The position numbers and the translations under genes are program-made. Positions 40,644 to 55,928 of a stretch of DNA of 64,000 nt are shown here, piece after piece. Under the pieces are notes generated by a model, which saw only the letters and a program-made list of their open reading frames with translations, had not been told where the DNA came from and searched no databases. Position 1 is the first letter of the stretch; each line of letters starts with the position of its first letter. Origin of the DNA: a virus (taxonomy: Duplodnaviria; Caudoviricetes); IMG/VR virus record IMGVR_UViG_3300026159_000398. One strand, 5' to 3'.

Positions 40644-40769
40644 TTATTTCTTTGGTTCTTTTGGTGGAAGAACTGGATTGCCAGTGTTGCTTGATCCGCC
40701 GCTGCCAGAACCTTTAGTAGCAGTTGTGCCACCAAGATGGCCGTGAAGATCTCCTAATTGTTTACCCAT
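40644..40769 (-). CDS. 41-aa Gly/Ser/Thr-rich peptide (not in ORF track)
   Basis: MGKQLGDLHGHLGGTTATKGSGSGGSSNTGNPVLPPKEPKK; AGGAGG SD and a downstream terminator. Confidence 0.7.
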   Translation of the reverse strand: MGKQLGDLHGHLGGTTATKGSGSGGSSNTGNPVLPPKEPKK

Positions 40770-41652: not shown

Positions 41653-41901
41653 TTATTTTGGACGCGGTTGCGCCATGTGCGCCACCGACATCATCGTGGA
41701 TATCATTTCCACTGGCGTGACGTTGCGTGTGATGACGCCGTTGTGTATTTTGCCAACAATATAAAAATCATTCAAGAATTCTTGATTAAATGGAATAATT
41801 CGTTCCACAATAATAGATACCTTTATCTCTGATTTTCCATCTTTAAGTTTCTCAAGAAGCTCATCACATGACTCTTGAACCATAGTCTGAAGTTCATTCA
41901 T
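41653..41901 (-). CDS. hypothetical protein, last gene of the rSAM/YcaO operon
   Basis: ATGA overlap with YcaO. Confidence 0.55.
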   Translation of the reverse strand: MNELQTMVQESCDELLEKLKDGKSEIKVSIIVERIIPFNQEFLNDFYIVGKIHNGVITRNVTPVEMISTMMSVAHMAQPRPK

Positions 41902-43229
41902 ATTTGTTCTCCAATTTCAATTCCAATTTTACTAAAATATTTATACCAACCATCAAGAGCCTCAAAACTTTCAATGGAATATGTCAACCAATCTTGTGTG
42001 TTTTTAGGGTCACCAACAAGATTAAATTGCATATGTGCCAATTCACTTATTCCTGGAATAATTATTCTTACTGTTGGAATTCCAATAAATGGTTGAGTAG
42101 CATCAATAACAATTAAATCAGTATTTAATTTTTGACATGAATTTACTAGAGATTGTATAAAACTATCAGTAGTTTTTTCAGGTGCTTTATACCCTTTAGA
42201 CATGGCCATAAATCTCTGAATATCTGTTAAATCACCCATGAAGCATTGGAAATTTGAACTCCAAAGATCTTTAGTTTTGCGCCATTCTTCACGAGGCAAC
42301 ACTCTATGATTTTGCATATCTACAACGTGGTTTTCCCAACCTTGAAAATATTCTGTAATACATCTCGTTGCCGCGATATTCATATTTGGAGATGCACCAA
42401 AAACAATTTGTCTTCTGCTAACTCGTGTTTCAGGTTCACGAATAGCTTCAAAAATACCAGCAATTACTGGAATAGTACCATTATCGGAATAATCTTTTAA
42501 AGTAACTTTTATTCCTTCTTTTTCAACATTCTCAATAAGTTGCTGAACAAAACTATCAAGACATCTCTTATCAAGTGTTGGAACTTCAATATTGCCAGCT
42601 AAAAGATTTCTTACAGCATAACGTTCAAAACATTCGCTGGCACCTTGAATAATAGCATCTTCAATATTTATGCCAGCAGAAAGTCCACTTGAACCGTTAA
42701 TAATAGACACCAATTGATACGGAACCATGACTTCTTCATTGGTCACAAGAGAAAAACCCTTTATCCAATGTTTAGCAACATTGGTGTTCTTTATTCTTTC
42801 TATATCGTCGTATGAATGTTGAATTTTTGAAAAAATAGATTCAACCGTTACTGGATTTCTTACTTCACTTTGATGCCCATAAAAATAAGCAGTCTGAAGA
42901 TGTTTTCCTCGTGAAGCGGCATGAAGCAGGAATGGAGTTAAATGCGTGGCGCGCATCGTGGTTCCAATTGATGTCTGAAGTCGTTCACATGCTTCTCCCA
43001 TAGCAGAAGCCAATGAAGATTCTGGTGTCGTTCCTTTGCCATTAACACCCATTCCCATTGATGGAAATTTAATAGAACAATAATACGTAGGAACATTTTG
43101 ATAACGAACAGGTTGCACTATCGTATAATCAATGCCAGATTTATCAAGTGCATCCTTCAAAATTATCAATGATTCTTCAATACCAACACTCTTATCAAAT
43201 TCATTCAACACTCTATTCACTAATTTCAT
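41898..43229 (-). CDS. ycaO: YcaO-family ATP-dependent backbone-modifying enzyme
   Basis: NGKG....S.ASAMGEACER, GSSGLSAG...EDAIIQG..ECFER, RCITEYFQG, IPTVRIIIPGISE. Confidence 0.88.
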   Translation of the reverse strand: MKLVNRVLNEFDKSVGIEESLIILKDALDKSGIDYTIVQPVRYQNVPTYYCSIKFPSMGMGVNGKGTTPESSLASAMGEACERLQTSIGTTMRATHLTPFLLHAASRGKHLQTAYFYGHQSEVRNPVTVESIFSKIQHSYDDIERIKNTNVAKHWIKGFSLVTNEEVMVPYQLVSIINGSSGLSAGINIEDAIIQGASECFERYAVRNLLAGNIEVPTLDKRCLDSFVQQLIENVEKEGIKVTLKDYSDNGTIPVIAGIFEAIREPETRVSRRQIVFGASPNMNIAATRCITEYFQGWENHVVDMQNHRVLPREEWRKTKDLWSSNFQCFMGDLTDIQRFMAMSKGYKAPEKTTDSFIQSLVNSCQKLNTDLIVIDATQPFIGIPTVRIIIPGISELAHMQFNLVGDPKNTQDWLTYSIESFEALDGWYKYFSKIGIEIGEQI

Positions 43230-43648
43230 TCAATATCCCACCCATTTTCTACAGGCAAATTGCCATTTATTTTTAAACATTCGATAATATATCTTTCAAT
43301 ATTTGAATCAACAGATTTGCAATTAGAATAAAACTTCTTATTTGGAACTTCTATTTTAGGAAGTTTTTCTTGAACACGCATCCATGTTGTTGGGTCATTG
43401 ATATTAAACAAAGAATCGTTTTTCATTAAATTTTCTACATTCTCTTTTGTATAAGCGAATGAAGGGTCAATCACGAAACTTAATGAATCATCAAGACGGA
43501 CTTCCATCAAATCGGTTTTTATTGTCTTATTATCATGGTACGTATGTGTCAAATACACTTTTACGTACTGAAGCGCATGATCAACCTCAAAACGAGTTAT
43601 TGAATATTCATCAATATTATTGGTGTTTGTTTTCTTTACGTATTTCAT
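43226..43648 (-). CDS. hypothetical protein in the rSAM/YcaO operon
   Basis: 140 aa, AAGGA RBS, ATGA overlap with YcaO. Confidence 0.65.
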   Translation of the reverse strand: MKYVKKTNTNNIDEYSITRFEVDHALQYVKVYLTHTYHDNKTIKTDLMEVRLDDSLSFVIDPSFAYTKENVENLMKNDSLFNINDPTTWMRVQEKLPKIEVPNKKFYSNCKSVDSNIERYIIECLKINGNLPVENGWDIE

Positions 43649-43660
43649 AAAATTTTCCTT

Positions 43661-44422
43661 TTAATAAGTTGAACCATGACATAAAACACAATTTATTGCA
43701 TATGAATAACAAGTGGTATTGCATGAACACGAGTGACCATGGCAAGTCGCCGCATCGCATGTTGTACATAATTCTGCTTGACAATGGCATATACCGTTGC
43801 AAGTACAAGTAATAGAGTAACAAGTATTGTTGCAACCACAAAAAGCAGTATAAGTATAAACACCGGCATTATGCCCAGTATTATAACATCCACAACGCCA
43901 ACCATATGTAGTATTATTACATGTGCATGTTTCAGTGTAACATGAGTTATAACAAGTGCAGTTATCACCAGTTGTGCAACTGTCTGCTGAAGTGTGGCAA
44001 TGCGTACACGTTGGCGCCGTATCTCCAGTGTGGCAAGCCCAACATTGTGCTTCAAGACTCAATAAATTGGTGCGAACTTCATTAGCAACACCGTATGCCA
44101 ATTTAGAATCATATTGTGTTACTGATGTCCATGAGAAATTTCCGCCAGTTCCAAGATACGTGTCTTTATAATTGTCTAGTGTGGTTCGAATGCTGTCCAA
44201 CAATGATTTAAGAACAACAGCATATTGTTTATCTGTAGTGCTTTCACCATAATTGCTTCCATACACATAACTAATTTTTTTATCAGCATGCATAGAAGCA
44301 TTATTATATTTCGTCCAATATGCTTTTATTCTATTGATGACACCTTGAACCCAATCGGCACCAACATAAGAATTATATTGTGAAACAGTATTTACTGTTG
44401 TATTGGCAGGGCAATCGCTCAT
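43661..44422 (-). CDS. Cys-rich repeat protein, candidate substrate of the rSAM and YcaO enzymes
   Basis: Residues 127-253 hold 27 Cys in CxC[NY]xx[CTG][YH] and CxxCH units. Confidence 0.8.
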   Translation of the reverse strand: MSDCPANTTVNTVSQYNSYVGADWVQGVINRIKAYWTKYNNASMHADKKISYVYGSNYGESTTDKQYAVVLKSLLDSIRTTLDNYKDTYLGTGGNFSWTSVTQYDSKLAYGVANEVRTNLLSLEAQCWACHTGDTAPTCTHCHTSADSCTTGDNCTCYNSCYTETCTCNNTTYGWRCGCYNTGHNAGVYTYTAFCGCNNTCYSITCTCNGICHCQAELCTTCDAATCHGHSCSCNTTCYSYAINCVLCHGSTY

Positions 44423-46059
44423 TATTTATTTTCCCAATATAAGAAGAACATTTCAGCTAAAGATTTTTTCTGCGAATCTTCAAGCTTAATCGTACTCAAT
44501 AATTGATCACGATTAAACGCACCCATATTGCAAATACACGCTTTCATATCTTGTGCATTGGTAATGTTTTTCATTTCTTGATCAACCATTGCTCTAATCA
44601 TCATCATCAATGACAATTGATCTTTCATTTCATCAGTAGCAAGACTGCCATAGAGTTGTCTTCTGACGATATCGTCAATCAAATCAGGAATGCTGGCGTA
44701 ATTAGACATATTACATGCACAATTCATAGCGGCGCCATCGCCATTAAAGGTGGAATAAAATCCTTTAACTCCTAACATACCACTATAATGATAAAGAACA
44801 CCAAATTTTATTGCATTCATAATTTCATAAAAAGCCAATTCATAAAGCAACATTTTAATTTTGCATATTTTTCCATCAATTGTGCCAGTCAATACTCCAT
44901 CATTATCATATTTAACTGCGTAACAACCACCAAGACATAACATTTCAATTGGACAATCTTTACAATGCATGAGTGGTGATTGAGCTCCAAGAAAAGTAGG
45001 AGTCTTAAGATCGTTTAATTCATAATACAATTCTTCATTGGTTATATTTTCAAAGATACTGCCAAGACAGAATTTCTTTTCGTGCCATTCGACATCAAGC
45101 GTATTGTGTTTGTTTGTTCTGTGACAAATATAAATGGCGCCTTCAACACTCACACCCATAAAATTACTGCCAGCTCCACAAGCTCTTCCACTTGGATTAT
45201 TTGGAGTAGGTTTACCTAAAATGCCCCTTTGTAAAACAAAACGACCATTGTCGTCAAGAAACTTAGAACCCAAGAAACGTTCCTTTTTTGCCAATAGTTG
45301 TATACGAAAATCTGCCAATTGCTCCAATTCTTTTTTATAATCTTGAAGATCTTGATCGGTCCAATCGGCATCATAATTTTCAGAAAAGAATATGCTGTCA
45401 AACCCCATCTCATAAAAGGTCTTAATGTTCTCAAACATTCCAATGATATTGCCTGGTGTTGGAGTCATTCGTATGCCAGGAAGGTGCTTGTTAAAATTTT
45501 TATACATTTTAACAACATCTTGCAGTCTCTTTTCAATTATAGGCCATGAAGAACTTCCATCAGGAAAAATACGTTCGCTGTTACGTTCTCCAATACCATC
45601 AATAGATAAAAGAAAATGTATATCTCGTGGAAGCAGCCATGCTAATTTATCTTCATTAAGTAATGTTACGTTGGTTGTTCCACCAAAACGAAATTTCTTT
45701 CCAACTTTATTTGCTTCTTCATCAGCATAAACAACTAATTGTTGAAGCAATTCAAACTTCATTAGTGGTTCACCACCCCAAAAATCAATTACAAGATGTG
45801 AATTCATAGCTTCTAAATCTTTTGGTGCTGGCCCAGATACATCATCACGCAAAAACCAATCAATGACCTGTTTGCCAGTTTCGAATGTTAAATCTTTTGA
45901 GGTGTCTTCTGTTTTGCAGGTATTCTGGTCGAATCCATGGTCGGCAAAACAATATTTGCAACGTAGTGTGCAACGTTCTGTGAGGTCTAAAGAAATAGTT
46001 TGAATTGGAGTTCCCAATTCAACTGGTGATTTGCCTTGTTTTAATTGCTGTGGTTTCAT
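44422..46059 (-). CDS. radical SAM / SPASM-domain peptide-modifying enzyme
   Basis: CTLRCKYC, WGGEPL, LSIDG, CGAG...G.IY.CHR, CKDC....LCLGGC...IC. Confidence 0.92.
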   Translation of the reverse strand: MKPQQLKQGKSPVELGTPIQTISLDLTERCTLRCKYCFADHGFDQNTCKTEDTSKDLTFETGKQVIDWFLRDDVSGPAPKDLEAMNSHLVIDFWGGEPLMKFELLQQLVVYADEEANKVGKKFRFGGTTNVTLLNEDKLAWLLPRDIHFLLSIDGIGERNSERIFPDGSSSWPIIEKRLQDVVKMYKNFNKHLPGIRMTPTPGNIIGMFENIKTFYEMGFDSIFFSENYDADWTDQDLQDYKKELEQLADFRIQLLAKKERFLGSKFLDDNGRFVLQRGILGKPTPNNPSGRACGAGSNFMGVSVEGAIYICHRTNKHNTLDVEWHEKKFCLGSIFENITNEELYYELNDLKTPTFLGAQSPLMHCKDCPIEMLCLGGCYAVKYDNDGVLTGTIDGKICKIKMLLYELAFYEIMNAIKFGVLYHYSGMLGVKGFYSTFNGDGAAMNCACNMSNYASIPDLIDDIVRRQLYGSLATDEMKDQLSLMMMIRAMVDQEMKNITNAQDMKACICNMGAFNRDQLLSTIKLEDSQKKSLAEMFFLYWENK

Positions 46060-46096
46060 ACTTACTCCTAATATTACTTAGGTAATTATATTATGT

Positions 46097-46864
46097 TTAT
46101 ACGAAAATTTTGAGATGATGTTCATGCTTCTCAATGATGACACCAATCAATTTGCTATATTCAATTTCATGTTGGAACATCTCAATACTATCTTTTAAAA
46201 TTCCATCACGAGTAAAATACAATCTTCTGCCTACATGGAATTTTTTGGTATCTTGAACATTGACATCCAATTGACCTTTCATACCAACAAATACTGGATG
46301 CTTGTATTTCTTATTGACTCCAACAATAAAGCCAGGATTCTTCGATACGACGCCTACAAACGCATCAGCAACTCCTTGCCATGCGGTTACTCTAAATGAA
46401 TGATGCATGATATCTACGAATGCCAGATCACCAGGTTTTAATGTGCCATCAGATGGAACTTGTTCAGCAATATCATTCCAAATAGCATTAAAGACGCGGC
46501 CAGAAATAAAGTTAGTTGAAGAGTTTATTGTACTAAAAGTTGATGGAATACCAGTTGAAGTGCCATATTCAAATAGACCCATAATATGGCTAGAAGAGTC
46601 TTGAATAGAAAGTTGTGGAGCTGTTCCACTTCCTTTGATAACACCGGTTGATAATAATAAATCTGAAGTAATAGGGCTGATGAATAATTCAGCACGAGTT
46701 ACGTACTTCTTTCTATTACTATCAGCACTATCTTCGATAAGAATATAATCAGCATCAATTGGTGTTGCTTTATGCGAAAGCGCAACAAATTCTCCTAGTG
46801 CTCCTTTTTGAAAGAAGACGCTAGGGTCGACTGTTGTGAAGAGTATGGCACTGGTATTTTCCAT
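46097..46864 (-). CDS. short tail-fibre-like protein with chaperone-like C-terminal domain
   Basis: VFNAIWNDIAE...GVVS.NPGF...VG.KG; shares the IEDSADS..KK.VTRA..F motif with the giant fibre. Confidence 0.6.
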   Translation of the reverse strand: MENTSAILFTTVDPSVFFQKGALGEFVALSHKATPIDADYILIEDSADSNRKKYVTRAELFISPITSDLLLSTGVIKGSGTAPQLSIQDSSSHIMGLFEYGTSTGIPSTFSTINSSTNFISGRVFNAIWNDIAEQVPSDGTLKPGDLAFVDIMHHSFRVTAWQGVADAFVGVVSKNPGFIVGVNKKYKHPVFVGMKGQLDVNVQDTKKFHVGRRLYFTRDGILKDSIEMFQHEIEYSKLIGVIIEKHEHHLKIFV

Positions 46865-46867
46865 AAA

Positions 46868-48220
46868 TTATTTTTGTTTATTAAGCTCTTGTAAGAACGC
46901 TTTTAAATTTCCGATATACTGTTTTTGTCCAACATGACCAGTAGTCATTGACGAATCTACGTATATCTTTCCACCCAAGTCTCTCCATTTCTTGCAGAAC
47001 ATAATGTCCTCGCTGTATAATTCTCCATCAACGACTCCAATATTGAAGATCATCTTTGATGGAACAGGCTTTTGCGATTCTTTATAGTCTTCTGAACTCT
47101 CATATAGTTTTACAATTGCTTCACGCGAAATACACATGAGACCTGTGCCAACTCCTTCGACTTCAATAATATCAGTCTCGAATTTCGTCTGCGTGGTCTT
47201 CACATTGAATGCAATCTCATCGTTCTTCTTGCGACATGGAGCTGCAATAATTTCTTTTTTTGCGTCAAGTAACTTAAAGATATCTTCAGGATTCCAAAGA
47301 ATATCACTATCAATAAATATCAAATAGTCTGCTTTGGCATCGTAAGCCATCTTGAAAAGATCATTACGCGCTCTTTGGATTAAAGCATCACCACAAAGGA
47401 ATATATGTTGGACTGCAATTCCTTTTTGCGCACCGAGTTGCTTAGTGTTAATCAAACAATCGACGTAATTCGCATGAAGATGCCAATCATGACTTGGAGT
47501 ACCAATAACAACCGTAGTTGATGGCATTCCAAGAATACTCTTAAAAATCTTTTCTTCTTCTTGCAATATACCCTTGTCATACAACTTCAATTCATTAACT
47601 GTTGTAGACTTGGCGTGATAAATAGTCTTATTAGTTATAAAGCCAATAGCGTGCTTTTGATCAAGAATACTTTTATAGATTAAATTATCACCAAAGAAAT
47701 ATTTCAGTTCTTTTGGAATTGGCTTATATTGTTCTTTACGGCCGAACATAAACCATCCTTGGAAATTAAGCACTCCATTTTTATCTGGTTGTCTTGTCCA
47801 TTCAGGCTTCGCTGAATTCTTGACATTAAAATAACCAGAAGCGTCTTCTTTTATAATGTCTTCGGTTTTAACGGTAACCAAATCAACATCATGAGCTGCA
47901 TCTGAATCAAGAACTTTAATGCATGAATCTATGATTGATGGCTCAATAACGATATCATCATTCAAAAGAAGATAATATTCAGTACCACAAATCTCAATGC
48001 CTCTATTCCATGATGGATTTATAAAGAAGTTAGAGTCATTGAAGTAATGAATCTTGTCATTCATCATCCATTCTGGTATTGATTTGTCATCACACTCAGT
48101 ATTGTCAAAGATAAAAATCTCTTCAACATTCTCGTCATCGATACACTTCTGAAGCGTATCTTTTAGAATCTCCACGCTCTTTAAGAGTGTAGGAATTATT
48201 ACAGTTACTCGTCCGCTCAT
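46868..48220 (-). CDS. double glycosyltransferase (two GT2-like domains)
   Basis: VIIPT...NPSWNRG...LLLNDD...FFGDN, then IGTP...RARN...FIDSD...GTG.M.I.R...SED..FC. Confidence 0.85.
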   Translation of the reverse strand: MSGRVTVIIPTLLKSVEILKDTLQKCIDDENVEEIFIFDNTECDDKSIPEWMMNDKIHYFNDSNFFINPSWNRGIEICGTEYYLLLNDDIVIEPSIIDSCIKVLDSDAAHDVDLVTVKTEDIIKEDASGYFNVKNSAKPEWTRQPDKNGVLNFQGWFMFGRKEQYKPIPKELKYFFGDNLIYKSILDQKHAIGFITNKTIYHAKSTTVNELKLYDKGILQEEEKIFKSILGMPSTTVVIGTPSHDWHLHANYVDCLINTKQLGAQKGIAVQHIFLCGDALIQRARNDLFKMAYDAKADYLIFIDSDILWNPEDIFKLLDAKKEIIAAPCRKKNDEIAFNVKTTQTKFETDIIEVEGVGTGLMCISREAIVKLYESSEDYKESQKPVPSKMIFNIGVVDGELYSEDIMFCKKWRDLGGKIYVDSSMTTGHVGQKQYIGNLKAFLQELNKQK

Positions 48221-48257: not shown

Positions 48258-51200
48258 TTACTTCTTCTTTAATATTTCTATTTCAGTTTTGAGGTCCTCT
48301 ATTTGTTTTGAAAGTTCTTGAACTGCTTTAACCAATGGCAATAAGAGCTTGCCATTTGAAACTTCGAGGCGGTCTGGATTGCTCTCAAGAACCATATTCA
48401 AATAGTCAGCGTCAAAATCCTTTTGTACTTGCTTGATCTCTTGAGCTATGAGACCAACATCCCATGCGTCTGATTTCTTGCTGCCATCAACCACTCCATC
48501 AGGATACCATTCACGACGGTCCCAATGGAACTTGCGAACCTTAACTGCGTTAATGAAGTTCAATCCAAGATCGAAGTCACCAATATCGGCTTTATCTCTC
48601 ATGTCTGAGAGAGCCACAATAGTTTGAGTATTGCAACGAAGTACAGTTACGTTAGCATCACCAAGAGTTATTTCGTTTGTAGCTGTGGCTGCTGAAGCTT
48701 GGGCATTGTAGCCAACAAGAGTTAAGTTACTTCCAGTTGTTATTGTATTTCCGGCTGTATAACCTATAGCAGTATTGTTATTGCCAAATGTATTTGCGCC
48801 TAAAGAACCTCTACCAACGGCAATATTCTGAATGCCTGTTGTATTGGCAATAAGTGCTCCATAACCAACAGCTACGTTACTTGCACCAGTTGTATTTACT
48901 GATAATGCTCCATGGCCAAGAGCAGTATTATAACCTCCAAATGTGTTAGCGGCTAATGTTGAAACACCAATCGCTGTGTTATATTGGCCTGTGGTATTTA
49001 AAGTAAGAGCTAATGTACCAATGGCTGTATTAAATGAAGAAACGTTGGCGTTAAGAGTATTTCTACCAACTGCTGTATTTTGAGTACCAATTACGTTAGC
49101 ACTCAAAGCTCCACTACCAATAGCGGTATTGTATTGACCTGTTGTGTTAAGAGCTAGTGCGTAATAACCAAGAGCTACGTTTCTATCACCTATTGTATTT
49201 GCAGCCAGCGTTTGGTGACCAATGGCAGTATTGTAAACTCCGGTCGTATTAGCAGCCAATGCATTACTGCCAATTGCTACGTTCTGTGTACCAATCGAGT
49301 TAGCAGTAAGAGCATTGTGGCCAATTGCAACATTATCAATACCCGTGATATTCGCATAAAGTGCTTGAAAACCAATTGCTATATTTTGGCGTCCAAATGT
49401 ATTAGTATCAAGAGTTCTATAGCCAATAGCTACATTATCATTACCAGTTCTGTTGTTCACGAGAGCTCGATATCCGAGTGCCAGATTTCTGTTTCCGAAT
49501 GTATTAGCACCTAAAGCATCTCGGCCAATGGCGAAGTTATCGGCTCCTGTTGTGTTAACTGAAAGGGCTTGATAACCAATAGCGATTAAGCTTCCAACTG
49601 TTGAAGCTGCGGCAGCAGCAAAACCTATTGCTACACTATAATTTCCTGTTACACTGGCTGTTAAAGCGTTGTAGCCAATAGCAACATTACTTGCACCGAA
49701 TGTATTAGCATCGAGGGCATAACTTCCAATAGCAATGTTGTAAGCACCGGTTGTATTCGCATTTAGCGCATTATTACCAATGGCTACGTTATCAGTTCCA
49801 ATTGTATTAACACCAAGAGTATTGGAACCAATAGCAACATTACTTACTCCTGTTGTATTGGCATCGAGAGCTTGATGACCAATGGCGATGTTATCGGTTC
49901 CAAAAGTATTGGCAATAAGAGCACTAGAACCTATTGCAACATTATATTGTCCTGTTGTATTTGCAGAAAGAGCACTCCATCCAATGCCAACATTAAAACT
50001 TGAAACGGTATTATTGAGAGTCAAATAACCAATAGCTACGTTTTGTGCACCAGTAAGATTGTTTGTTAAAGCGGATCTTCCAATAGCGACGTTAACATTA
50101 CCCCATGTATTTTTGCCACATGCATCATATCCGATAGCAACATTATGAGAACCTGTTGTATTGTCATAAAGTGCGTAACTTCCAATAGCAGTATTGTAAG
50201 CACCAATTGTATTGGCACTCAATGTGTTAGCACCAACCGCAGTATTATCCCCGCCAGTTGTATTCAAAGTAAGAGATAGATAACCAACAGCTGTGTTTCC
50301 TTGGCCTGTTGTATTGGCTTTAAGCGCTTGATAACCAACTGCAGTCCACCAGCCGTTCGCCATATTAGCAACGTTTAACGCTTCATGACCGATAGCCACG
50401 TTTCCTGAACCAGAAACATTTGCACCTAAAGTATTATATCCAATAGCGACGTTATCAACACCGATTGTATTTGCTTGAAGTGCAGCCCAGCCAACAGCGA
50501 CGTTGTTGTTGCCTGTTGTATTGCTCCAAAGTGCACTAACTCCAATGGCTACGTTATAAACTCCGAATGTATTGAAATACATTGCATTGGCGCCAACGGC
50601 TGTATTTGAATAACCTGTTGTAGTTGAATATAATGCTTGATAGCCAATAGCGGTATTCCAGCTAGTTGTGTTCGTATAAAGAGCTTGATGGCCAATGGCG
50701 GTATTGTTAACACCGATTAAATTTGTATAAAGTGCTCGATAACCAACAGCAATATTGTTTTCACCTGTTGTATTGGCATTTAATGCATAAGCTCCAACAG
50801 CGGTATTATAACGAGCGATTGTGTTGTTTGTTAATGCCCCAGCACCAATGGCTGTATTGTTTGTTCCGGTTGAGTTGGTTCCAAGTGCAGCAGCACCGAA
50901 GGCCGTGTTTCTATCACCTATATCGTTATTATAAAGTGCTAAATATCCAACAGCAGTATTTCTTACTCCAGTTGTGTTGCTTGTTAAAGCACTGTTTCCG
51001 ATTGCTGTATTGAAAGCACCAATTGTATTTGTTTGAAGTGAAGCATATCCAACCGCAGTATTACTTGCGCCAGTTGTGTTGCTTAATAAAGTATTGCTTC
51101 CAACACCAACGTTATAGTTTCCAAAAGTATTGGCACTTAATGCATTATTACCAATACCAACATTCTGAATACCTGTTGTATTGGCATCAAGTGCGGCATT

Positions 51201-54200
51201 TCCAATTGCTAAGTTGGCCACACCAGTAGTATTAAGTGTAAGTGCATTGTAGCCAATAGCAATGTTATAATGTCCAAATGTATTGCTATAAAGAGCTTGC
51301 CATCCAACAGCTACGTTATGATTTCCAGTTATGTTGTTAAACATTGCTTCGTTGCCAATTGCAACGTTATCATAACCATAAGTATTGGATGACATTGCGT
51401 TATAACCAACAGCTGTATTTTGAAAACCAGATACGTTTGCAGCTAAAGTACCAAGGCCGATTGCTGTGTTATAATTACCTGTTACATTGTTGCCTAAAGC
51501 GTTGTAACCTAAAGCAGTATTGTAATTTCCAAATGTATTGTTATGAAGCGCATAATAACCAACGGCTGTATTTTGTGCACCGGTTGTATTGACCAATAAT
51601 GCTTGAGAACCCAATGCTGTATTGCTTGCAATGTCTCCAGCACCCAAACCAATTGTGAGCGAATGAACGGTAAGATCATTTGCAATTGGCTCTAAGAAAA
51701 TTGATGCACGAGTTACTCTCTTCTTATTCCAAGAATCTGCGCTATCTTCAATAATGAATTCATCAAGATCAACTACTGGTGTTTTAGCATCTACGACGTG
51801 AATTTCATTTGGCACATTTGTATGAAGAGCGTAAATGTCTGTAATTGTTGTTGCTAATTCAGACGCGCGATATGGAAGAACGTGAATCGTATTTGCATCT
51901 TCAACAAACAATACTGGATTGCTGAATCCTGTTTCTGGTTCTGTCGCAGTCAAAACACCAGCAGAAGTCGTGCTTACGAAGTAGAATGTTTCAACTGTCA
52001 ATCCATGAGCTGTTATTGTGAATCGACCAGACTGAGCAGCAACAAAGCTATCAAGACCAGTTACTTCTGTAATAACATGAGTAGCCAACGTTAATGAGTT
52101 GTCTGCTAATGCCGCTTTCCAGATACCTGCATCAAAATAGATTGGTGTGAGTACTGTGAATCCATGACCAGTTTGAGCAACAGTAAACGTTGTGCCGGCG
52201 CTTCCACCAGATACTAAATCATCAAGTGTATCAAGAGCTTTTTGGACTGTGTCATCTGCTACAGACAAATTATTGTTAAAATTATCTGTATTAACTGAAA
52301 TACTTGAAGCACTTGTAGCTCCAAGAATTAAGTTGTCTATTGTATCAAGAGCTTTTTGAACTGTGTCATCTGCCGCAGACAAGTTATTATTGAAGTTACT
52401 TGTATCTGTTGGTATTGTAGAGGCGGTGGGCGATGGGCCTGCGGCTCCAATAACAGTACCAGTAGAAGTTGAAACTCGGATGTTGATAAAAGTAGCATCA
52501 ACAAGCTTGATATGTGTGTTTGTAAAAAGACCCGTCGTATTATATAAGAATGTCAAACGATAGATTGGCACAATTTCTTGAATAGCAAGAGCAGCTAAAC
52601 CAGATAGATTATTAAATGACCATCCAGATTCAGAAAGTGTTGTTGTTAAATTAGAACCCACAGATTGCGATTGACCCATAATCGCAATCAATGGTTGGCT
52701 CGTCATGTTTGTTGCACAAAGATATACACAATAGTATCTGTTGGCGGTCATATTGCTCCAACCGCCAGTTGGGTTATTATATTGTGCCGTCATTGAAGCA
52801 ATTGTAGATGCATCTACAGCGGCTCCACCACTTACACCAAGAAAGTCAGTAGTCGGATTTAATCTTCTCCAAGTATAAACTCCACCAACATAACTATCAA
52901 TGTAGAATATTGGAATGCGAGCACCAATTACTATGGCATCTCCTGATACCATTCCAGCTACTGTTGCAACCGTGAAAGATGTACCTGTTCCACCAGCTGA
53001 AATTGTTGTTGTACCACGAACAATAGTAGTGTTTCCTTGCATAACTGTGACAGCTTGTCCAGTCACAAGTGTGTGTGATGTTGAAAATACTATGGTTGTG
53101 TCGTTGGTTCCTACTGTTGCTAATGCCGTAAAACCAAGGAATTGTTCTACCGTAAGAGCCCAATCTGTATATGGAGCTGCAGTTGTAGAAGCTATTGAAG
53201 CGTCAGTGTGGACAATCGCATTACGTATATCTTCATCAAAAAATGAGCCGCTAGAAATTTGAACTTGAGCACGTCCAAAGTTGTCGTTTGTATTTCCCGA
53301 AAGATTAGTAAGTCCATTGTATTGATTGAAAATAAAACCACTATTGTAAACAGCACCTTGCGCGTGGTTTCTTGCGTGTTGGAAAATATCACGGCCTGCG
53401 GTGTGACGTTCTTCACCAATCCATGTGATATTGGTTGTTACTGAATTATAACGAAAATTCCACAAGAGAACATCAGGACTATAAATATCCCAAGGAATTT
53501 GTGTTAATACAAGAACTGGAGTAGCAACATCAGTTGTTGTTTTATCGATATATAAGAACCATAGACCTTCAGCGGCAGTTGCACTTATTGTATATGCTGA
53601 AATATTTCCAGCAGTAACGGTAAATTTCTTTCCATTAATGTAGTAACTAAAAGAGGTGTTTGCCCCAACAAATGAAATTGTAGCTACAATATCAGGAGCA
53701 GAATATGTAATAGCAACTTTAAATTTTCCGCGTTCACTCCATGGAACACCAGTTGCTAATTTAGTGTCAAGGCCGTAATTAACAAAGTTTCTATTTAAAG
53801 AACTGATTGTCACATCAGTAAAAGAAGGAGAATCAGTTGTGTTGATTGCTTGATCTGAATGGTAGAATGATGATGTGTCAACATCGCCACCTTGGAGTCC
53901 TGATAAACCATTGTGAATAGTTATACCAGAGAAAACCATTGTTGTTGCAGTATCTATCTTTGATGCTGTTGAAGCACCAGTTGCTACAATAATACGTCCA
54001 ACCAACATGCTGAAAGTTGTAAACAATGCTGGCAAGTTAGAAGGTGGAGTACTTGCTGCGGCATCTGCCAACGTTCCATAAGCGCTTGTTCCAAGAACAA
54101 CCAAAGTTTGTAAAGAGTTTTGAGTAAGAACACGGTAAATCCAGTTGACAGCGTATTTATTTGGCGTCAGAGCAACAAGATTTGTTCCGTTGTCGTATTG

Positions 54201-55928
54201 TGAATTATTATATTGTGTAATAGTGGTTGATGTCCATACCCCGGCTGAGTGGTAGTACAAAGTCATTTCTTGACCACCGACATCAGACTTAATGGCATCC
54301 AATGTTACATTAGCGGCTCCATACCATACTTTACCCGATGAGATGTTGACAACACGAGTTGCGCTTTCTGTGATAATTAAACTATTTGGTTCTGCATGGA
54401 AGCGGTCTGTTTTAACCAATCGATGTGAGAGTTTGTTTGAGAGGCCTTGAGCCATCAAATCCCACATGAGATAATAGATTGTGCCACCATTATTGAAAAC
54501 AGTCACAATAGGAATTACGTTACTTTGATTGATTGGAGTAACGTCCGTAATCATCTCTACAATAGGATTTCCACTATTGTAGTTGGCTACGATGTAGCTC
54601 GTAACTCCAGAAGTCGGATTAAATGTTCCACCTGCAATTTTGTATCTATTCAGCGATGGGCTGTAATATGTGTCATCATCGTAAAGAAGATATTCACCAG
54701 TTCCAACTGTTATAGAACCAGCTCCTGTACTTATTGATGGGCTTATAAAAATACCAGCACTATCATAGAACACGTAATCTGGCATTTCTTCGACAGAATC
54801 GAAGTATGGGTGCATTACCCCTTCATCTGCTCCCACTTCTATAGCGGCAAAACCAATGTACACACAGTGGTCACGAAGAATTAAGGGCGGTTCAGGAGGA
54901 AGTTCTTGGTGACATTCATCTTCATTGTAGTGTTGTACAGTTCCAAGAGTATAGAATACTTCTCGAACATCGCCAATACTTCTATAGAAGTAACGATTTA
55001 CCCAACGGTTTGCTGTACCGGCGACGGCATTTGTACCATTGTCGTAAAGAGAATTATCGTAGTATGTTTCATGTGTGTATGTCCACACTCCGCCAACGTG
55101 ATTAACACGTGTAAGAGTATGCGTACTTGAATCAAATGGGTTGACAACTATTGGTGTTACACCGGCATAGACTATCGCACTTGTAACAACAACTGTACGA
55201 TAATGTGGCGAACTTGATTCACTGATAATGAGTCCTTTGTCGATTGAACGTCTGTATGATACAGTGTTGTACGCCCAACGGTGAATTTTGTTTGCAAGTC
55301 CAAGACCAAAAGTATCATCACCAATAGAGTGAATTGTTGAATCTTGTCTCCAACAAACAAAGACGGTAAAAATAGAAGAACCATTGATTAAATATTTATT
55401 GGTTTCTTTGCGGCAAATTGGTGTGCCACCATTGTAATCAACAACAACATACTCTTCTGTATTTTCAGTAAAAGTAAGAGTTACTTCAGGAATTGTAAAT
55501 GCTTTAAGAATTCCAGTATAATCAGCATTAGGATATACAAAAGCTACGAATGAACTTATTGTTGCTGTACCATCATTATTATCTGTAAGTGTAGGTTCGG
55601 TAATTGGACCTGCATCTTGTGGAAAAGTAGAATAAGTATTTACTACACCAGCTTCGGCGTATAATACACCATTCTTTGTCAAGAAATTCAAATTGGTAAT
55701 ATTTGCAGTTGTAATATTGCCAGTCGTAATATTATCAGTTGTGATATTGGCAGTGTCAAGATTGGCAGTTGTGGCGCCAAGTGTAGTTATTGTGGCGCTT
55801 GTGGCTCCAAGAGTTGTTATGTCGGCTTCTAACGCGTTTAATCCAGCAGCAGAAAGATCAAGAGTATCACCGTCTTGAATTTGCTGCTTAAGACCACTGT
55901 TGAGAACTAATGGTTTTCTATCTGCCAT
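48258..55928 (-). CDS. giant tail fibre/adhesin with ~14-aa beta-roll repeats and C-terminal S74-like chaperone
   Basis: About 1000 aa of NTAIG..AL..NTTG repeats; SDMRDK...GLIAQE...LVKAVQEL terminus. Confidence 0.85.
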   Translation of the reverse strand: MADRKPLVLNSGLKQQIQDGDTLDLSAAGLNALEADITTLGATSATITTLGATTANLDTANITTDNITTGNITTANITNLNFLTKNGVLYAEAGVVNTYSTFPQDAGPITEPTLTDNNDGTATISSFVAFVYPNADYTGILKAFTIPEVTLTFTENTEEYVVVDYNGGTPICRKETNKYLINGSSIFTVFVCWRQDSTIHSIGDDTFGLGLANKIHRWAYNTVSYRRSIDKGLIISESSSPHYRTVVVTSAIVYAGVTPIVVNPFDSSTHTLTRVNHVGGVWTYTHETYYDNSLYDNGTNAVAGTANRWVNRYFYRSIGDVREVFYTLGTVQHYNEDECHQELPPEPPLILRDHCVYIGFAAIEVGADEGVMHPYFDSVEEMPDYVFYDSAGIFISPSISTGAGSITVGTGEYLLYDDDTYYSPSLNRYKIAGGTFNPTSGVTSYIVANYNSGNPIVEMITDVTPINQSNVIPIVTVFNNGGTIYYLMWDLMAQGLSNKLSHRLVKTDRFHAEPNSLIITESATRVVNISSGKVWYGAANVTLDAIKSDVGGQEMTLYYHSAGVWTSTTITQYNNSQYDNGTNLVALTPNKYAVNWIYRVLTQNSLQTLVVLGTSAYGTLADAAASTPPSNLPALFTTFSMLVGRIIVATGASTASKIDTATTMVFSGITIHNGLSGLQGGDVDTSSFYHSDQAINTTDSPSFTDVTISSLNRNFVNYGLDTKLATGVPWSERGKFKVAITYSAPDIVATISFVGANTSFSYYINGKKFTVTAGNISAYTISATAAEGLWFLYIDKTTTDVATPVLVLTQIPWDIYSPDVLLWNFRYNSVTTNITWIGEERHTAGRDIFQHARNHAQGAVYNSGFIFNQYNGLTNLSGNTNDNFGRAQVQISSGSFFDEDIRNAIVHTDASIASTTAAPYTDWALTVEQFLGFTALATVGTNDTTIVFSTSHTLVTGQAVTVMQGNTTIVRGTTTISAGGTGTSFTVATVAGMVSGDAIVIGARIPIFYIDSYVGGVYTWRRLNPTTDFLGVSGGAAVDASTIASMTAQYNNPTGGWSNMTANRYYCVYLCATNMTSQPLIAIMGQSQSVGSNLTTTLSESGWSFNNLSGLAALAIQEIVPIYRLTFLYNTTGLFTNTHIKLVDATFINIRVSTSTGTVIGAAGPSPTASTIPTDTSNFNNNLSAADDTVQKALDTIDNLILGATSASSISVNTDNFNNNLSVADDTVQKALDTLDDLVSGGSAGTTFTVAQTGHGFTVLTPIYFDAGIWKAALADNSLTLATHVITEVTGLDSFVAAQSGRFTITAHGLTVETFYFVSTTSAGVLTATEPETGFSNPVLFVEDANTIHVLPYRASELATTITDIYALHTNVPNEIHVVDAKTPVVDLDEFIIEDSADSWNKKRVTRASIFLEPIANDLTVHSLTIGLGAGDIASNTALGSQALLVNTTGAQNTAVGYYALHNNTFGNYNTALGYNALGNNVTGNYNTAIGLGTLAANVSGFQNTAVGYNAMSSNTYGYDNVAIGNEAMFNNITGNHNVAVGWQALYSNTFGHYNIAIGYNALTLNTTGVANLAIGNAALDANTTGIQNVGIGNNALSANTFGNYNVGVGSNTLLSNTTGASNTAVGYASLQTNTIGAFNTAIGNSALTSNTTGVRNTAVGYLALYNNDIGDRNTAFGAAALGTNSTGTNNTAIGAGALTNNTIARYNTAVGAYALNANTTGENNIAVGYRALYTNLIGVNNTAIGHQALYTNTTSWNTAIGYQALYSTTTGYSNTAVGANAMYFNTFGVYNVAIGVSALWSNTTGNNNVAVGWAALQANTIGVDNVAIGYNTLGANVSGSGNVAIGHEALNVANMANGWWTAVGYQALKANTTGQGNTAVGYLSLTLNTTGGDNTAVGANTLSANTIGAYNTAIGSYALYDNTTGSHNVAIGYDACGKNTWGNVNVAIGRSALTNNLTGAQNVAIGYLTLNNTVSSFNVGIGWSALSANTTGQYNVAIGSSALIANTFGTDNIAIGHQALDANTTGVSNVAIGSNTLGVNTIGTDNVAIGNNALNANTTGAYNIAIGSYALDANTFGASNVAIGYNALTASVTGNYSVAIGFAAAAASTVGSLIAIGYQALSVNTTGADNFAIGRDALGANTFGNRNLALGYRALVNNRTGNDNVAIGYRTLDTNTFGRQNIAIGFQALYANITGIDNVAIGHNALTANSIGTQNVAIGSNALAANTTGVYNTAIGHQTLAANTIGDRNVALGYYALALNTTGQYNTAIGSGALSANVIGTQNTAVGRNTLNANVSSFNTAIGTLALTLNTTGQYNTAIGVSTLAANTFGGYNTALGHGALSVNTTGASNVAVGYGALIANTTGIQNIAVGRGSLGANTFGNNNTAIGYTAGNTITTGSNLTLVGYNAQASAATATNEITLGDANVTVLRCNTQTIVALSDMRDKADIGDFDLGLNFINAVKVRKFHWDRREWYPDGVVDGSKKSDAWDVGLIAQEIKQVQKDFDADYLNMVLESNPDRLEVSNGKLLLPLVKAVQELSKQIEDLKTEIEILKKK

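Follow-up and report, generated by a model that had tools for sequence, protein, structure and literature searches.

Within a 64,000-nucleotide stretch of phage DNA (the window), five same-strand open reading frames at positions 41,653–46,059 (minus strand) encode a radical SAM (rSAM)/SPASM enzyme, a cysteine-repeat protein, a 140-residue orphan, a YcaO homolog and an 82-residue orphan. The first two, together with a fiber-type protein encoded directly upstream (46,097–46,864, minus strand), form the core of a real and conserved module, which occupies the tail-fiber position in three kinds of tail module. The rSAM and YcaO enzymes probably modify the cysteine-repeat protein chemically, and we favor, with a probability of about 0.55, a sequence-based reading in which a retained, fiber-associated protein would undergo both thioether cross-linking and a YcaO-dependent backbone change. 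Our literature search retrieved no paper on a phage case of such a system.

All five frames were found on the minus strand at the coordinates given in an earlier note on this DNA: rSAM/SPASM (545 residues; 44,422–46,059), cysteine-repeat protein (253 residues; 43,661–44,422), 140-residue protein (43,226–43,648), YcaO (443 residues; 41,898–43,229) and 82-residue protein (41,653–41,901). The three coupled junctions it described are also present, with a one-nucleotide overlap between the rSAM and cysteine-repeat genes (TAATG) and four-nucleotide overlaps (ATGA) at the 140-residue/YcaO and YcaO/82-residue boundaries. Comparison with a close relative (L007, 85–90% identical) yields dN/dS values of 0.02–0.12 across the five frames, which puts all of them under purifying selection and marks them as real genes. 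The block thus exists as the earlier note had drawn it, but the five genes are not the conserved unit, which is instead the fiber-type protein, rSAM and cysteine-repeat triad. As for the promoter that had been assigned to the block, the TATAAT hexamer is indeed present at 46,085–46,090 (minus strand), in the 37-nucleotide gap 5′ of the rSAM gene and followed by an AGGAG ribosome-binding site, but lacks an acceptable −35 partner and is absent from the sites listed by the promoter scan. Since promoter-like sites in the region show no excess (42 versus 35.2 ± 5.9 in shuffles) and the gap to the upstream gene holds no terminator, a separate promoter is unsupported and cotranscription with the fiber genes is at least as likely.

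The rSAM enzyme is full-length, as had been claimed, with both the PF04055 (33.2 bits, cut-off 29.5) and SPASM (TIGR04085, 33.7, cut-off 27) models exceeding their cut-offs and both cysteine motifs in place. The CxxxCxxC cluster motif read from the sequence (C30/C34/C37; 45,949–45,972, minus strand) is conserved in five full-length homologs, and the SPASM CX2CX5CX3C motif (C366/C369/C375/C379; 44,923–44,964, minus strand), after which comes C399, corresponds to invariant columns in alignment A5. There is no N-terminal RRE domain. Its nearest models are all thioether maturases, namely PapB (E = 1.6e-52; at 178.8 bits the best NCBIfam match, under the 340 cut-off), followed by SCIFF and QhpD, and the protein is accordingly predicted to be a thioether-forming maturase. 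A C-terminal extension of ~130 residues carries two CxC(N) motifs (C447/C449/N450 and C508/C510; 44,530–44,721, minus strand) that are invariant in six homologs, including fragments in L006 and L011, and may represent a putative four-cysteine metal site. The closest precedents for the pair are the archaeal CrpA/CrpC system, in which CrpC cross-links a 28.8-kDa cysteine-repeat protein, and the PapB and NxxcB peptide maturases.

The presumed substrate contains 28 cysteines, 27 of them within residues 127–253, reproducing the earlier count for the last 127 residues. Its N-terminal domain (residues 1–126; 44,045–44,422, minus strand) starts with a conserved MSDCPAN sequence seen in alignments A1 and A10, is modeled by AF2 at low confidence with helices at residues 22–39, 67–90 and 110–129, and matches the N-terminal domain of the type-B repeat proteins discussed below (hhalign Prob 77%, E = 2e-5); the domain may serve in recognition or docking and would be retained in the product. 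The core (residues 127–253 plus the stop codon; 43,661–44,044, minus strand) opens with an invariant CWAC motif, closes with an invariant tyrosine and is built of C-x-C-[NDHY]-x-x-[CT]-[YH] units with a period of 11–12 residues; with an AF2 pLDDT of ~25, it is predicted to be unstructured before modification. The combination of an N-terminal domain and a disordered core is also compatible with a RiPP-like precursor. Selection on the gene is strong (dN/dS 0.059 versus L007), with no sign of hypervariability, and the core is conserved to the same degree as the N-terminal domain, the extreme N- and C-termini being invariant.

The repeat extends well beyond the window. The same 11–13-residue unit, with the consensus C-[ST]-C-[ND]-x-T-C-Y-G-Y-x-x, is common to three architectures, namely small proteins of two types, A and B, and large fused proteins, all of the comparative loci being uncultured contigs. 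In the fused group the repeat forms the C-terminal part of 650–1201-residue tail-tip or fiber-like proteins, including TipJ/Phage-tail_3-like ones of 1034–1201 residues, encoded near homologous rSAMs; the adjoining enzymes in L008 (35% identity, E = 1e-64) and L013 (31%) are recognizable homologs of the window’s. An rSAM match lies within 6 kb of the repeat in six of seven distinct IMG/VR loci, with a strong SPASM-type match in four; L020, also from IMG/VR, has no rSAM within that distance, and L016, L022 and L009 (the last by inference only) have a weak or no SPASM-type match in reach.

Each repeat unit has three cysteines, which could coordinate metals as an alternative or in addition to forming thioethers. 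We considered that the main role of the repeat may be that of a metal-binding or Fe-S/redox structural domain in a fiber protein, devoid of iterative thioether cross-linking, with the rSAM and YcaO playing limited or different roles such as a single modification or a chaperone-like function. The frequent histidine or tyrosine in the units, the CxxCH-like motifs at each end of the core, the extra invariant four-cysteine site in the rSAM itself and the suspected metal binding of CrpA (PMC13692751) all fit such a scenario. It nevertheless leaves the need for an rSAM unexplained, and in many lineages the repeat is accompanied by a dedicated SPASM maturase, an enzyme whose closest families are all thioether-forming. 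Moreover, embedded in the repeat are NxxC and CxxN/D, acceptor motifs familiar from known thioether systems, NxxC and CxxD/Q being published rSAM β-thioether motifs (PMC9389541; PMC13692751). We consider a mainly metal-binding repeat very unlikely.

Thioether formation would be only one of two modifications. The YcaO identification in the earlier note is borne out by PF02624 (159.5 bits, E = 1.7e-46) and TIGR00702 (112.8, cut-off 75.65), and no equivalog cut-off is reached among the NCBIfam models. The protein is stand-alone, and alignment to E. coli YcaO (4q84) reveals retention of the GEacER and SEcFER motifs and of R289/E293, so that it looks active, with conserved ATP/Mg-binding motifs. 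As previously observed, the C-terminal PxP is missing, a proline-rich C-terminus being found in none of five homologs, and no TfuA, dehydrogenase or E1-like partner is encoded in the record. The 140- and 82-residue proteins, described as unknowns in the earlier note, indeed have no counterpart among the families of Pfam, NCBIfam and PHROG. All six members of the 140-residue family are found in the cassette, and the protein, whose confident AF2 model (pLDDT 88.8) returned no match in a fold search, is a candidate accessory or partner for the YcaO step. In L006 it occurs without YcaO, whose place is taken by something else, and in L011 and L012 both are missing beside the core triad; by sequence comparison, YcaO and the 140-residue protein are an add-on confined to one subclade. 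The 82-residue frame, 96% identical in L007 (dN/dS 0.02) and absent from L002, L003, L004 and L012, is a real gene outside the conserved module, seen besides the window only in L007.

This dispensability would also suit a scenario in which YcaO and the 140-residue protein are merely colocated with the rSAM/cysteine-repeat pair and act on another substrate, such as the 255-residue fiber-type protein, a host protein or a conserved 41-residue Gly/Ser/Thr-rich peptide encoded 1.1 kb downstream. The nearest solved relatives of the YcaO, E. coli YcaO and MJ1094, are protein-directed. Outside the window, however, the 41-residue frame was seen only in L007, itself a close relative, and the rSAM/cysteine-repeat/140-residue/YcaO order is identical in L002, L003, L004/L005 and L007, at 29–52% identity and amid unrelated flanks, with order and coupling kept in four divergent lineages. 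Furthermore, a cysteine-free insert in the repeat protein (YNTGHNAGVYTYTAF, residues 180–194; 43,841–43,885, minus strand) tracks with YcaO linkage: in alignment A10 the members that carry it are those of the window and L007 along with P0002, P0003, P0005 and P0004 (for which the genomic context is not known), whereas it is missing from P0006, P0018, P0019 and P0020, and L006, L011 and L012, where no YcaO adjoins the cassette, have insert-free members (the context of P0019 was not seen). Through this correlation the insert is a candidate YcaO target, and we regard a separate YcaO substrate as quite improbable.

Genomic position ties the module to the tail. In the window it comes after a giant 2556-residue tail fiber with a C-terminal Peptidase_S74 chaperone domain (48,258–55,928, minus strand; PF13884, E = 3.8e-10), in L002 after the baseplate wedge, and in L012 after the tape measure, a tail protein and a J-like protein and before the endolysin. 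A 450-residue glycosyltransferase with two GT-like regions (46,868–48,220, minus strand; PF00535, E = 2.7e-12; phrog_1574) separates the giant fiber from the short 255-residue one. Residues 8–76 of the latter resemble residues 1358–1426 of the giant fiber, and its C-terminal domain (~170 residues) is 37–48% identical to proteins encoded directly 5′ of the rSAM gene in L002, L003, L004 and L012, making it the constant upstream neighbor wherever a locus extends that far; the rSAMs of these four loci are 40–52% identical to the window’s. In L018 a type-B cysteine-repeat gene is directly preceded by a weaker match. Atlas neighbors of the 255-residue protein are phage fiber clusters (score 0.92; TM 0.53–0.62), and these look-alikes tentatively suggest a fiber-type C-terminal domain; a Peptidase_G2 HMM and a PDB profile search gave no match. 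The block is kept, always at a tail-fiber position, in divergent phage contigs, bearing out the linkage that the earlier note had anticipated. The metagenomes that contain the sequence come from biogas fermenters and anaerobic digesters. Recent capture of a bacterial cluster, which that note had raised, is contradicted by the absence of relatives from 185,579 species genomes, except for one prophage-like contig, and by the block’s unremarkable composition.

These comparisons also bear on whether the module makes a released RiPP-like product, with a long leader domain and a modified core set free by lysis or by proteolysis in the host, that could serve as a bacteriocin, signal, anti-defense or host-takeover factor. 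The leader-like N-terminal domain and unstructured cysteine-rich core would be in keeping with it, as would the stand-alone state of the repeat protein in the window phage, two enzyme classes that are both typical RiPP maturases, the multi-pass membrane protein (weak MFS-like match) between the repeat gene and rSAM in L018, and the three tandem repeat paralogs of L010, reminiscent of many precursor arrays. However, no transporter, protease or immunity gene family was detected, as already remarked, and proteases, exporters and immunity genes were found in none of the type-A cassettes; the purifying selection on the core, the invariant termini, and the constant setting amid tail-fiber genes next to a fiber-type protein likewise argue against release. 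In other phages the repeat sits at the end of tail proteins, making a hardened virus part likelier than an antibiotic-like peptide. A released product is therefore unlikely, and the earlier proposal of a fiber-modifying system, as opposed to a secreted RiPP, gains comparative support. Because the window’s repeat protein is not fused to a fiber, its attachment to the virion is proposed by analogy with its relatives.

We therefore propose that the block could act as a tail-fiber accessory module of a ~205-kb anaerobic-digester phage. The 253-residue protein would be made late in infection, keeping its helical N-terminal domain uncleaved and presenting a C-terminal half in which C-[ST]-C-[ND]-x-T-C-Y units form an unstructured array. 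The rSAM/SPASM enzyme would move along this array and join cysteine sulfurs to side-chain carbons, most likely the Asn/Asp β-carbon of the embedded NxxC or CxxN/D motifs, and the resulting cross-links would stiffen it into a rod or knob. In the subclade that has it, YcaO, aided by the 140-residue protein, would install an azoline, thioamide or amidine on the repeat protein in an ATP-dependent manner. The modified product would then stay with the virion as a distal fiber or adhesin part, alongside the upstream short fiber-type protein. If this is true, its thioethers would outlast the reducing, anoxic habitat of the phage, where disulfides would not.

The block lies on the minus strand of a 205-kb IMG/VR record, estimated to be 83% complete, where a 2556-aa fibre gene, a 450-aa glycosyltransferase gene and a 255-aa ORF (46097-46864) precede five packed ORFs: a radical SAM/SPASM enzyme of 545 aa (44422-46059), a Cys-repeat protein of 253 aa (43661-44422), a 140-aa orphan (43226-43648), a YcaO protein of 443 aa (41898-43229) and an 82-aa orphan (41653-41901). 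The three overlapping gene junctions described in the earlier note are present, with overlaps of 1 or 4 nt, as is the reported crowding of cysteines into the last 127 residues of the 253-aa protein, where we count 27 of its 28 cysteines in residues 127-253. The radical SAM-SPASM and YcaO assignments are borne out by PF04055, TIGR04085, PF02624 and TIGR00702, all of which exceed their cut-offs, and the 253-, 140- and 82-aa proteins have no matches in Pfam, NCBIfam or PHROGs. Comparison with L007, a close relative at 85-90% identity, gives dN/dS values of 0.02-0.12 across all five ORFs; all are real genes, with the Cys-repeat gene (0.059) under strong constraint. The G+C content of the block is that of the remaining phage. 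A TATAAT promoter of its own had also been proposed for the block; the hexamer exists (46085-46090), yet the promoter scan gives no scored promoter there and promoter-like sites in the region are not more frequent than in shuffles, so that a separate promoter was rejected as unsupported. The sequence occurs in metagenomic runs from biogas fermenters and anaerobic digesters, and no RNA datasets are listed for the stretch. Farther downstream, 1.1 kb beyond ycaO, lies a 41-aa Gly/Ser/Thr-rich ORF (40644-40769, minus strand) that is called as a gene in L007 (95% identity, dN/dS 0.10) and was not seen in the more distant cassettes.

Following the Cys-rich protein and YcaO through their homologues, we reached independent contigs, uncultured throughout, among which the gene order radical SAM enzyme, Cys-repeat protein, ~140-aa protein and YcaO is repeated in L002, L003, L004/L005 and L007 at identities of 29-52% and within otherwise unrelated flanks. 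A search for co-occurrence of YcaO, SPASM radical SAM and Cys-rich ORFs near fibre genes, as the earlier note had suggested, thus finds them linked and in the same order on several divergent contigs. Two further loci, L011 and L012, contain the radical SAM enzyme and the Cys-repeat protein without YcaO and without the 140-aa protein, and L006 (1743-2851) carries a homologue of the 140-aa protein and, instead of YcaO, a 274-aa protein without family. Of the five-gene operon originally envisaged, the radical SAM and Cys-repeat genes therefore stand and are joined by the upstream gene for a fibre-type protein to form the conserved core, YcaO and the 140-aa protein are an add-on restricted to one sub-clade, and the 82-aa ORF, seen in L007 only, drops out. 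Beyond these contigs, a megablast search of GenBank phages with the cassette gave zero matches, scanning IMG/VR with YcaO alone, with the Cys-rich protein alone and with alignments A1 (Cys-repeat proteins) and A7 returned only the phage's own record, and the GTDB species genomes yielded no relatives with alignment A1 and one occurrence of a distant Cys-repeat family member, P0020, in a Spirochaetia MAG contig.

Several of these loci carry additional genes. In L002 (12530-14390) and L003 (4855-6747), ycaO is followed by two extra conserved genes, for a second, DUF512-like radical SAM protein (36% mutual identity) and a 233/234-aa protein (35%); this pair is absent from the present record, in which we found no second radical SAM gene. 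In L006, a 95-aa ACP/PP-binding-like ORF with weak Pfam matches follows the gene for the 274-aa protein, and in L011 (1496-2687) the Cys-repeat gene is followed by a QueC-like PP-loop protein and a multi-pass membrane protein, read by eye from the sequence, which we would guess to be 7-deazaguanine genes.

Identifiable tail and fibre neighbours place the module in a phage tail-fibre context, and this position is kept across three tail layouts: the module follows the giant fibre, with its terminal Peptidase_S74 chaperone domain, in the window, it follows a baseplate wedge (phrog_219, 3.6e-28) in L002, where gp25-like and tape-measure matches are also found, and in L012, a Spirochaetia MAG contig, it stands between a series of tape measure, tail protein and J-like protein on one side and an endolysin on the other. 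The ~170-aa C-domain of the window's 255-aa ORF also ends the protein directly upstream of the radical SAM gene in L002, L003 and L004 (37-48% identity) and in L012 (40%), and the N-terminal parts of these proteins vary: L002 has a DUF4815-type region, L004 has collagen repeats, and the window protein has a segment that it shares with the giant fibre. In the Atlas, a protein-cluster resource, the clusters resembling the 255-aa protein are phage fibre clusters (TM 0.53-0.62), in the top one of which PF11962 is carried by 28% of members. Assignment of the C-domain to Peptidase_G2 (PF11962) was rejected, as the HMM gave no match by hmmscan at E 1 or in a six-frame search at E 10, and we therefore call the domain just "fibre-type". 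At the other end of the 255-aa protein, residues 8-76 (46637-46843, minus strand) share 38% identity and the motif IEDSADS..KK.VTRA with a stretch of the 2556-aa fibre (residues 1358-1426; 51651-51857, minus strand); judging from the sequence, this may be an attachment segment common to both.

Tail proteins reappear in the Cys-repeat family itself. Its profile matched 33 of 1.84 billion representative proteins, which split into full-length type A, small type B and large repeat-bearing proteins, all sharing the repeat unit C-[ST]-C-[ND]-x-T-C-Y-G-Y-x-x with a period of 11-13. The small type-B proteins have a three-helix N-domain related to that of type A (hhalign Prob 77%, E 2e-5), and in the large proteins the repeat makes up the C-terminal or central part; the N-terminal parts of two of these (1034 and 1201 aa) match phrog_8917 and resemble Phage-tail_3/TipJ clusters, and those of others are C1q-like, collagen-trimerisation or lectin-like. 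Radical SAM enzymes accompany the repeat here as well: in L008 a radical SAM/SPASM gene directly follows that of the 1201-aa repeat protein (35% identical to the window enzyme, E 1e-64), in L013 one (31%) stands a single small gene away from a preceding 1064-aa repeat protein, and overall a radical SAM match lies within 6 kb of the repeat in six of seven distinct IMG/VR contigs, being of strong SPASM type in four. In L018 the repeat protein is again directly preceded by a protein with the fibre-type C-domain. These features bear on the possibility that the module makes a released RiPP-like factor, as the leader-plus-core appearance of the Cys-repeat protein could suggest; with a constrained core, invariant termini, protease and exporter missing and the repeat fused to tail proteins, we consider such a product unlikely.

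Two type-B loci are more elaborate: L018 (6536-7567) has genes for a 343-aa multi-pass membrane protein (weak MFS-like match) and a 300-aa ORF between the repeat gene and the radical SAM gene, and L010 (36-3446) has three repeat paralogues in tandem (235, 237 and 450 aa, the last with an inserted domain of ~200 aa) and a GNAT acetyltransferase gene between them. In Phage Phass-1 (OQ749652.1, genetic code 15; L027:5118-6668), the ORF after a distant radical SAM gene (25% identity) is unannotated; its 174 aa comprise a helical stretch with the motif FQLIFNAINTAK and a C-terminus rich in Cys, on which grounds this gut phage may hold another variant of the same theme.

The AlphaFold2 fold of the window's Cys-repeat protein is unusable at a pLDDT of 35.9. 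Nothing was found for the protein in NCBIfam and Pfam even at E 10, and a tblastn search of GenBank phages with the repeat region gave no match, for which the low-complexity filter is possibly to blame. No DNA-level tandem repeat is present within the gene, indicating that the protein repeats are old and diverged. A Cys-containing repeat of 12 residues is also reminiscent, as a lead only, of thin beta-solenoids, among them the beetle antifreeze protein.

The adjoining enzyme carries the radical SAM signature CxxxCxxC at C30/C34/C37 (PF04055, 33.2 bits vs 29.5) and a SPASM domain (TIGR04085, 33.7 vs 27) in which C366-x2-C369-x5-C375-x3-C379 and C399 are invariant. The leading models are all of thioether maturases (PapB, SCIFF, QhpD and CcpM), each scoring far under its own equivalog cut-off; the best of 41 NCBIfam families is PapB (NF047865) with 178.8 bits, below the cut-off of 340, so that the enzyme is PapB-like rather than a PapB equivalog. 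It lacks an N-terminal RRE, its core beginning at about residue 17 and the SCIFF-maturase profile aligning only from position 94, and neither it nor the 140-aa protein matches PqqD/RRE families. It has instead a C-terminal extension of ~130 aa with two CxC(N) motifs, whose four cysteines (residues 447-510; 44530-44721, minus strand) are invariant in all six homologues and may bind a metal or an Fe-S cluster as a fourth such site, a reading that is at least as likely from the sequence as one of pseudo-substrate motifs. A Cys repeat that is itself mainly a metal-binding domain would leave this dedicated maturase unexplained, and we regard that explanation as very unlikely. Radical SAM proteins of GenBank phages with 24-28% identity were discarded as examples of this system, being SCIFF-type maturases beside classical SCIFF peptides; such peptides (GGCGECQTSCQSACKTSC) adjoin the maturases in L028 (586-732) and L029 (4498-4641), two faecal "Bacteriophage sp." sequences (MT836452.1 and MT835472.1).

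PapB, acting on PapA (freyrasin), and NxxcB, acting on NxxcA, are radical SAM enzymes whose products, ranthipeptides, contain beta-thioethers between Cys and Asp or Asn. The window enzyme and its L008 homologue both have PapB as their best NCBIfam model, and the phage unit, like PapB and NxxcB substrates, holds [ND]-x-x-C as well as C-x-x-[ND]. The former corresponds to NxxC, the motif at which NxxcB joins Cys to Asn through a beta-thioether, with Asp also tolerated (PMC9389541). PapB and NxxcB substrates are, however, short secreted leader peptides, as opposed to the 250-1200-aa proteins of the tail modules, and their clusters are without YcaO. The CXXX-repeat system (TIGR04114/TIGR04115; PF27846) likewise couples a Cys-repeat target with a radical SAM/SPASM maturase, but it has Cys at every fourth residue, whereas the cysteines of the phage 12-mer occupy positions 1, 3 and 7, with a spacing of 2/4/5-6 in the window's Cys-repeat protein; the CXXX system too is without YcaO. 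The phage module does not belong to it, with 89.6 bits for the maturase against a cut-off of 350 and the target model unmatched; an Atlas look-alike cluster that carries PF27846 and is mostly viral (score 0.82) is a lead only.

The nearest published system is CrpA/CrpC, in which CrpC, a radical SAM/SPASM enzyme of Methanococcus voltae, installs ranthionine cross-links on CrpA, a 28.8-kDa Cys-repeat protein (PMC13692751, 2026). Both the archaeal substrate and the putative phage substrate are protein-sized Cys-repeat proteins in which an N-terminal region for recognition, a candidate one in the phage, precedes a repeat array poorly modelled by AlphaFold at the C-terminus, both adjoin a radical SAM maturase with a SPASM domain, and neither cluster has a protease or a transporter. 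The C-x-x-[ND] of the phage unit resembles the C-X-X-(Q/D) motif of CrpA, and read from the genes alone the Crp-type features, namely a Cys-repeat protein 100 aa or longer beside a radical SAM/SPASM enzyme and a C-X-X-(Q/D)-like motif, are present in the phage. Unlike the phage module, the Crp system is archaeal, cellular and possibly tied to metal or pyrite metabolism; its repeat spans 17 residues rather than 11-13, CrpC has an N-terminal RRE where the phage enzyme has none and carries the four-Cys extension, and YcaO, a 140-aa partner and a fibre context are all lacking. TIGR04463 is not among the 25 families listed for the window enzyme.

The add-on YcaO belongs firmly to its superfamily (PF02624, 159.5 bits vs 25.7; TIGR00702, 112.8 vs 75.65), with S75, E79, E82, E199, E202, R203, R289 and E293 invariant and aligned to the corresponding E. 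coli YcaO positions, which we take to bind ATP; its nearest solved relatives by sequence are among the protein-directed enzymes, E. coli YcaO (4q84, E 1.7e-16) and MJ1094 (E 3.7e-12). It shares the kinase fold of the TOMM and cyanobactin enzymes (SagD, LynD/TruD and McbD), and its candidate substrate is Cys/Ser/Thr-rich as theirs are, but it falls under every equivalog cut-off and does not fit the azoline type: it scores 78.7 bits against the SagD-type model TIGR03604 (cut-off 219.25), and its homologues end in GEQI, KHG or TF instead of a Pro-rich tail, in agreement with the lack of a C-terminal PxP pointed out in the earlier note and unlike the PxPxP of the azoline formers. Their partners are missing too, with E1-like, Ocin-ThiF and RRE families undetected and a nitroreductase/FMN dehydrogenase absent from the 205-kb record. 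Protein-directed YcaOs provide a second comparison, the E. coli enzyme being an accessory of RimO in ribosomal S12 modification and the methanogen enzyme acting with TfuA in thioamidation of an McrA glycine. Like these, the phage YcaO is stand-alone and its probable substrate is a folded or large protein; it nevertheless remains under both equivalog cut-offs (98.8 vs 700 for the E. coli type and 75.1 vs 365 for the McrA thioamide type, TIGR03266), has no counterpart to the C-terminal domain of E. coli YcaO (586 aa) and has a new 140-aa protein and a radical SAM enzyme as partners. TfuA has no match in the phage record (83% complete), and a TfuA-independent thioamide route is conceivable. The nearest YcaO relatives outside the cassette, at 27% identity in metagenomic loci L030 (364-5311) and L032 (1065-7401), stand behind two to three radical SAM genes, so that YcaO and radical SAM clusters occur beyond this phage family too.

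The 140-aa family is confined to the cassette, and its confident AlphaFold2 model (pLDDT 88.8) matches no solved or Atlas fold (Foldseek against the PDB, best E 0.013, TM 0.23; VIA-align, best Z 4.7; Atlas, best TM 0.47). Profile searches of the PDB with alignments A2 and A3 gave no matches either. We set aside its identification as an RRE, having seen no resemblance, though weak fold matches prove nothing; a predicted complex with YcaO (score 0.01, mark 0.32) counts neither for nor against pairing. Within the Cys-repeat family, a Cys-free insert (residues 180-194) is confined to the YcaO-linked members and is a candidate YcaO site; that YcaO works on a substrate other than the Cys-repeat protein seems to us quite unlikely.

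In its most far-reaching form, to which we give a probability of roughly one in three, our proposal is that the module matures a distal fibre or adhesin protein by iterative radical SAM thioether formation together with a backbone change introduced by YcaO and its new-fold partner, yielding a redox-proof rod of 12-residue repeats suited to strictly anaerobic habitats. In what we consider the most likely mode of action, by analogy with the known maturases, the phage enzyme would staple each repeat unit through a thioether, with the N-domain of the Cys-repeat protein serving as a retained recognition or docking domain, and in the YcaO sub-clade YcaO and the 140-aa protein would add the backbone change. 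The product would stay on the virion alongside the fibre-type protein, its thioethers substituting for disulfides in a reducing habitat.

RiPP enzymes are best known for small secreted peptides, and to our knowledge few whole-protein targets of such enzymes have been described, namely QHNDH, McrA, ribosomal S12 and, since 2026, CrpA. In the literature we found neither a phage case of a radical SAM- or YcaO-modified virion protein nor a YcaO and 140-aa-partner add-on combined with a radical SAM/Cys-repeat module; the add-on, with a partner without known fold, is a new combination, and the module supplies thioether and YcaO enzymology with substrates that are repetitive by nature and of protein size. 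Such modules would be overlooked in viromes or mislabelled there as "RiPP BGCs" or "auxiliary antibiotic genes", and stapled fibre tips could bear on phage stability and engineering. If the proposal is true, it would explain how Cys-rich extracellular structures stay cross-linked under anoxic conditions where disulfides fail, and phages that harden their host-recognition apparatus by RiPP chemistry would represent a new class of virion maturation.
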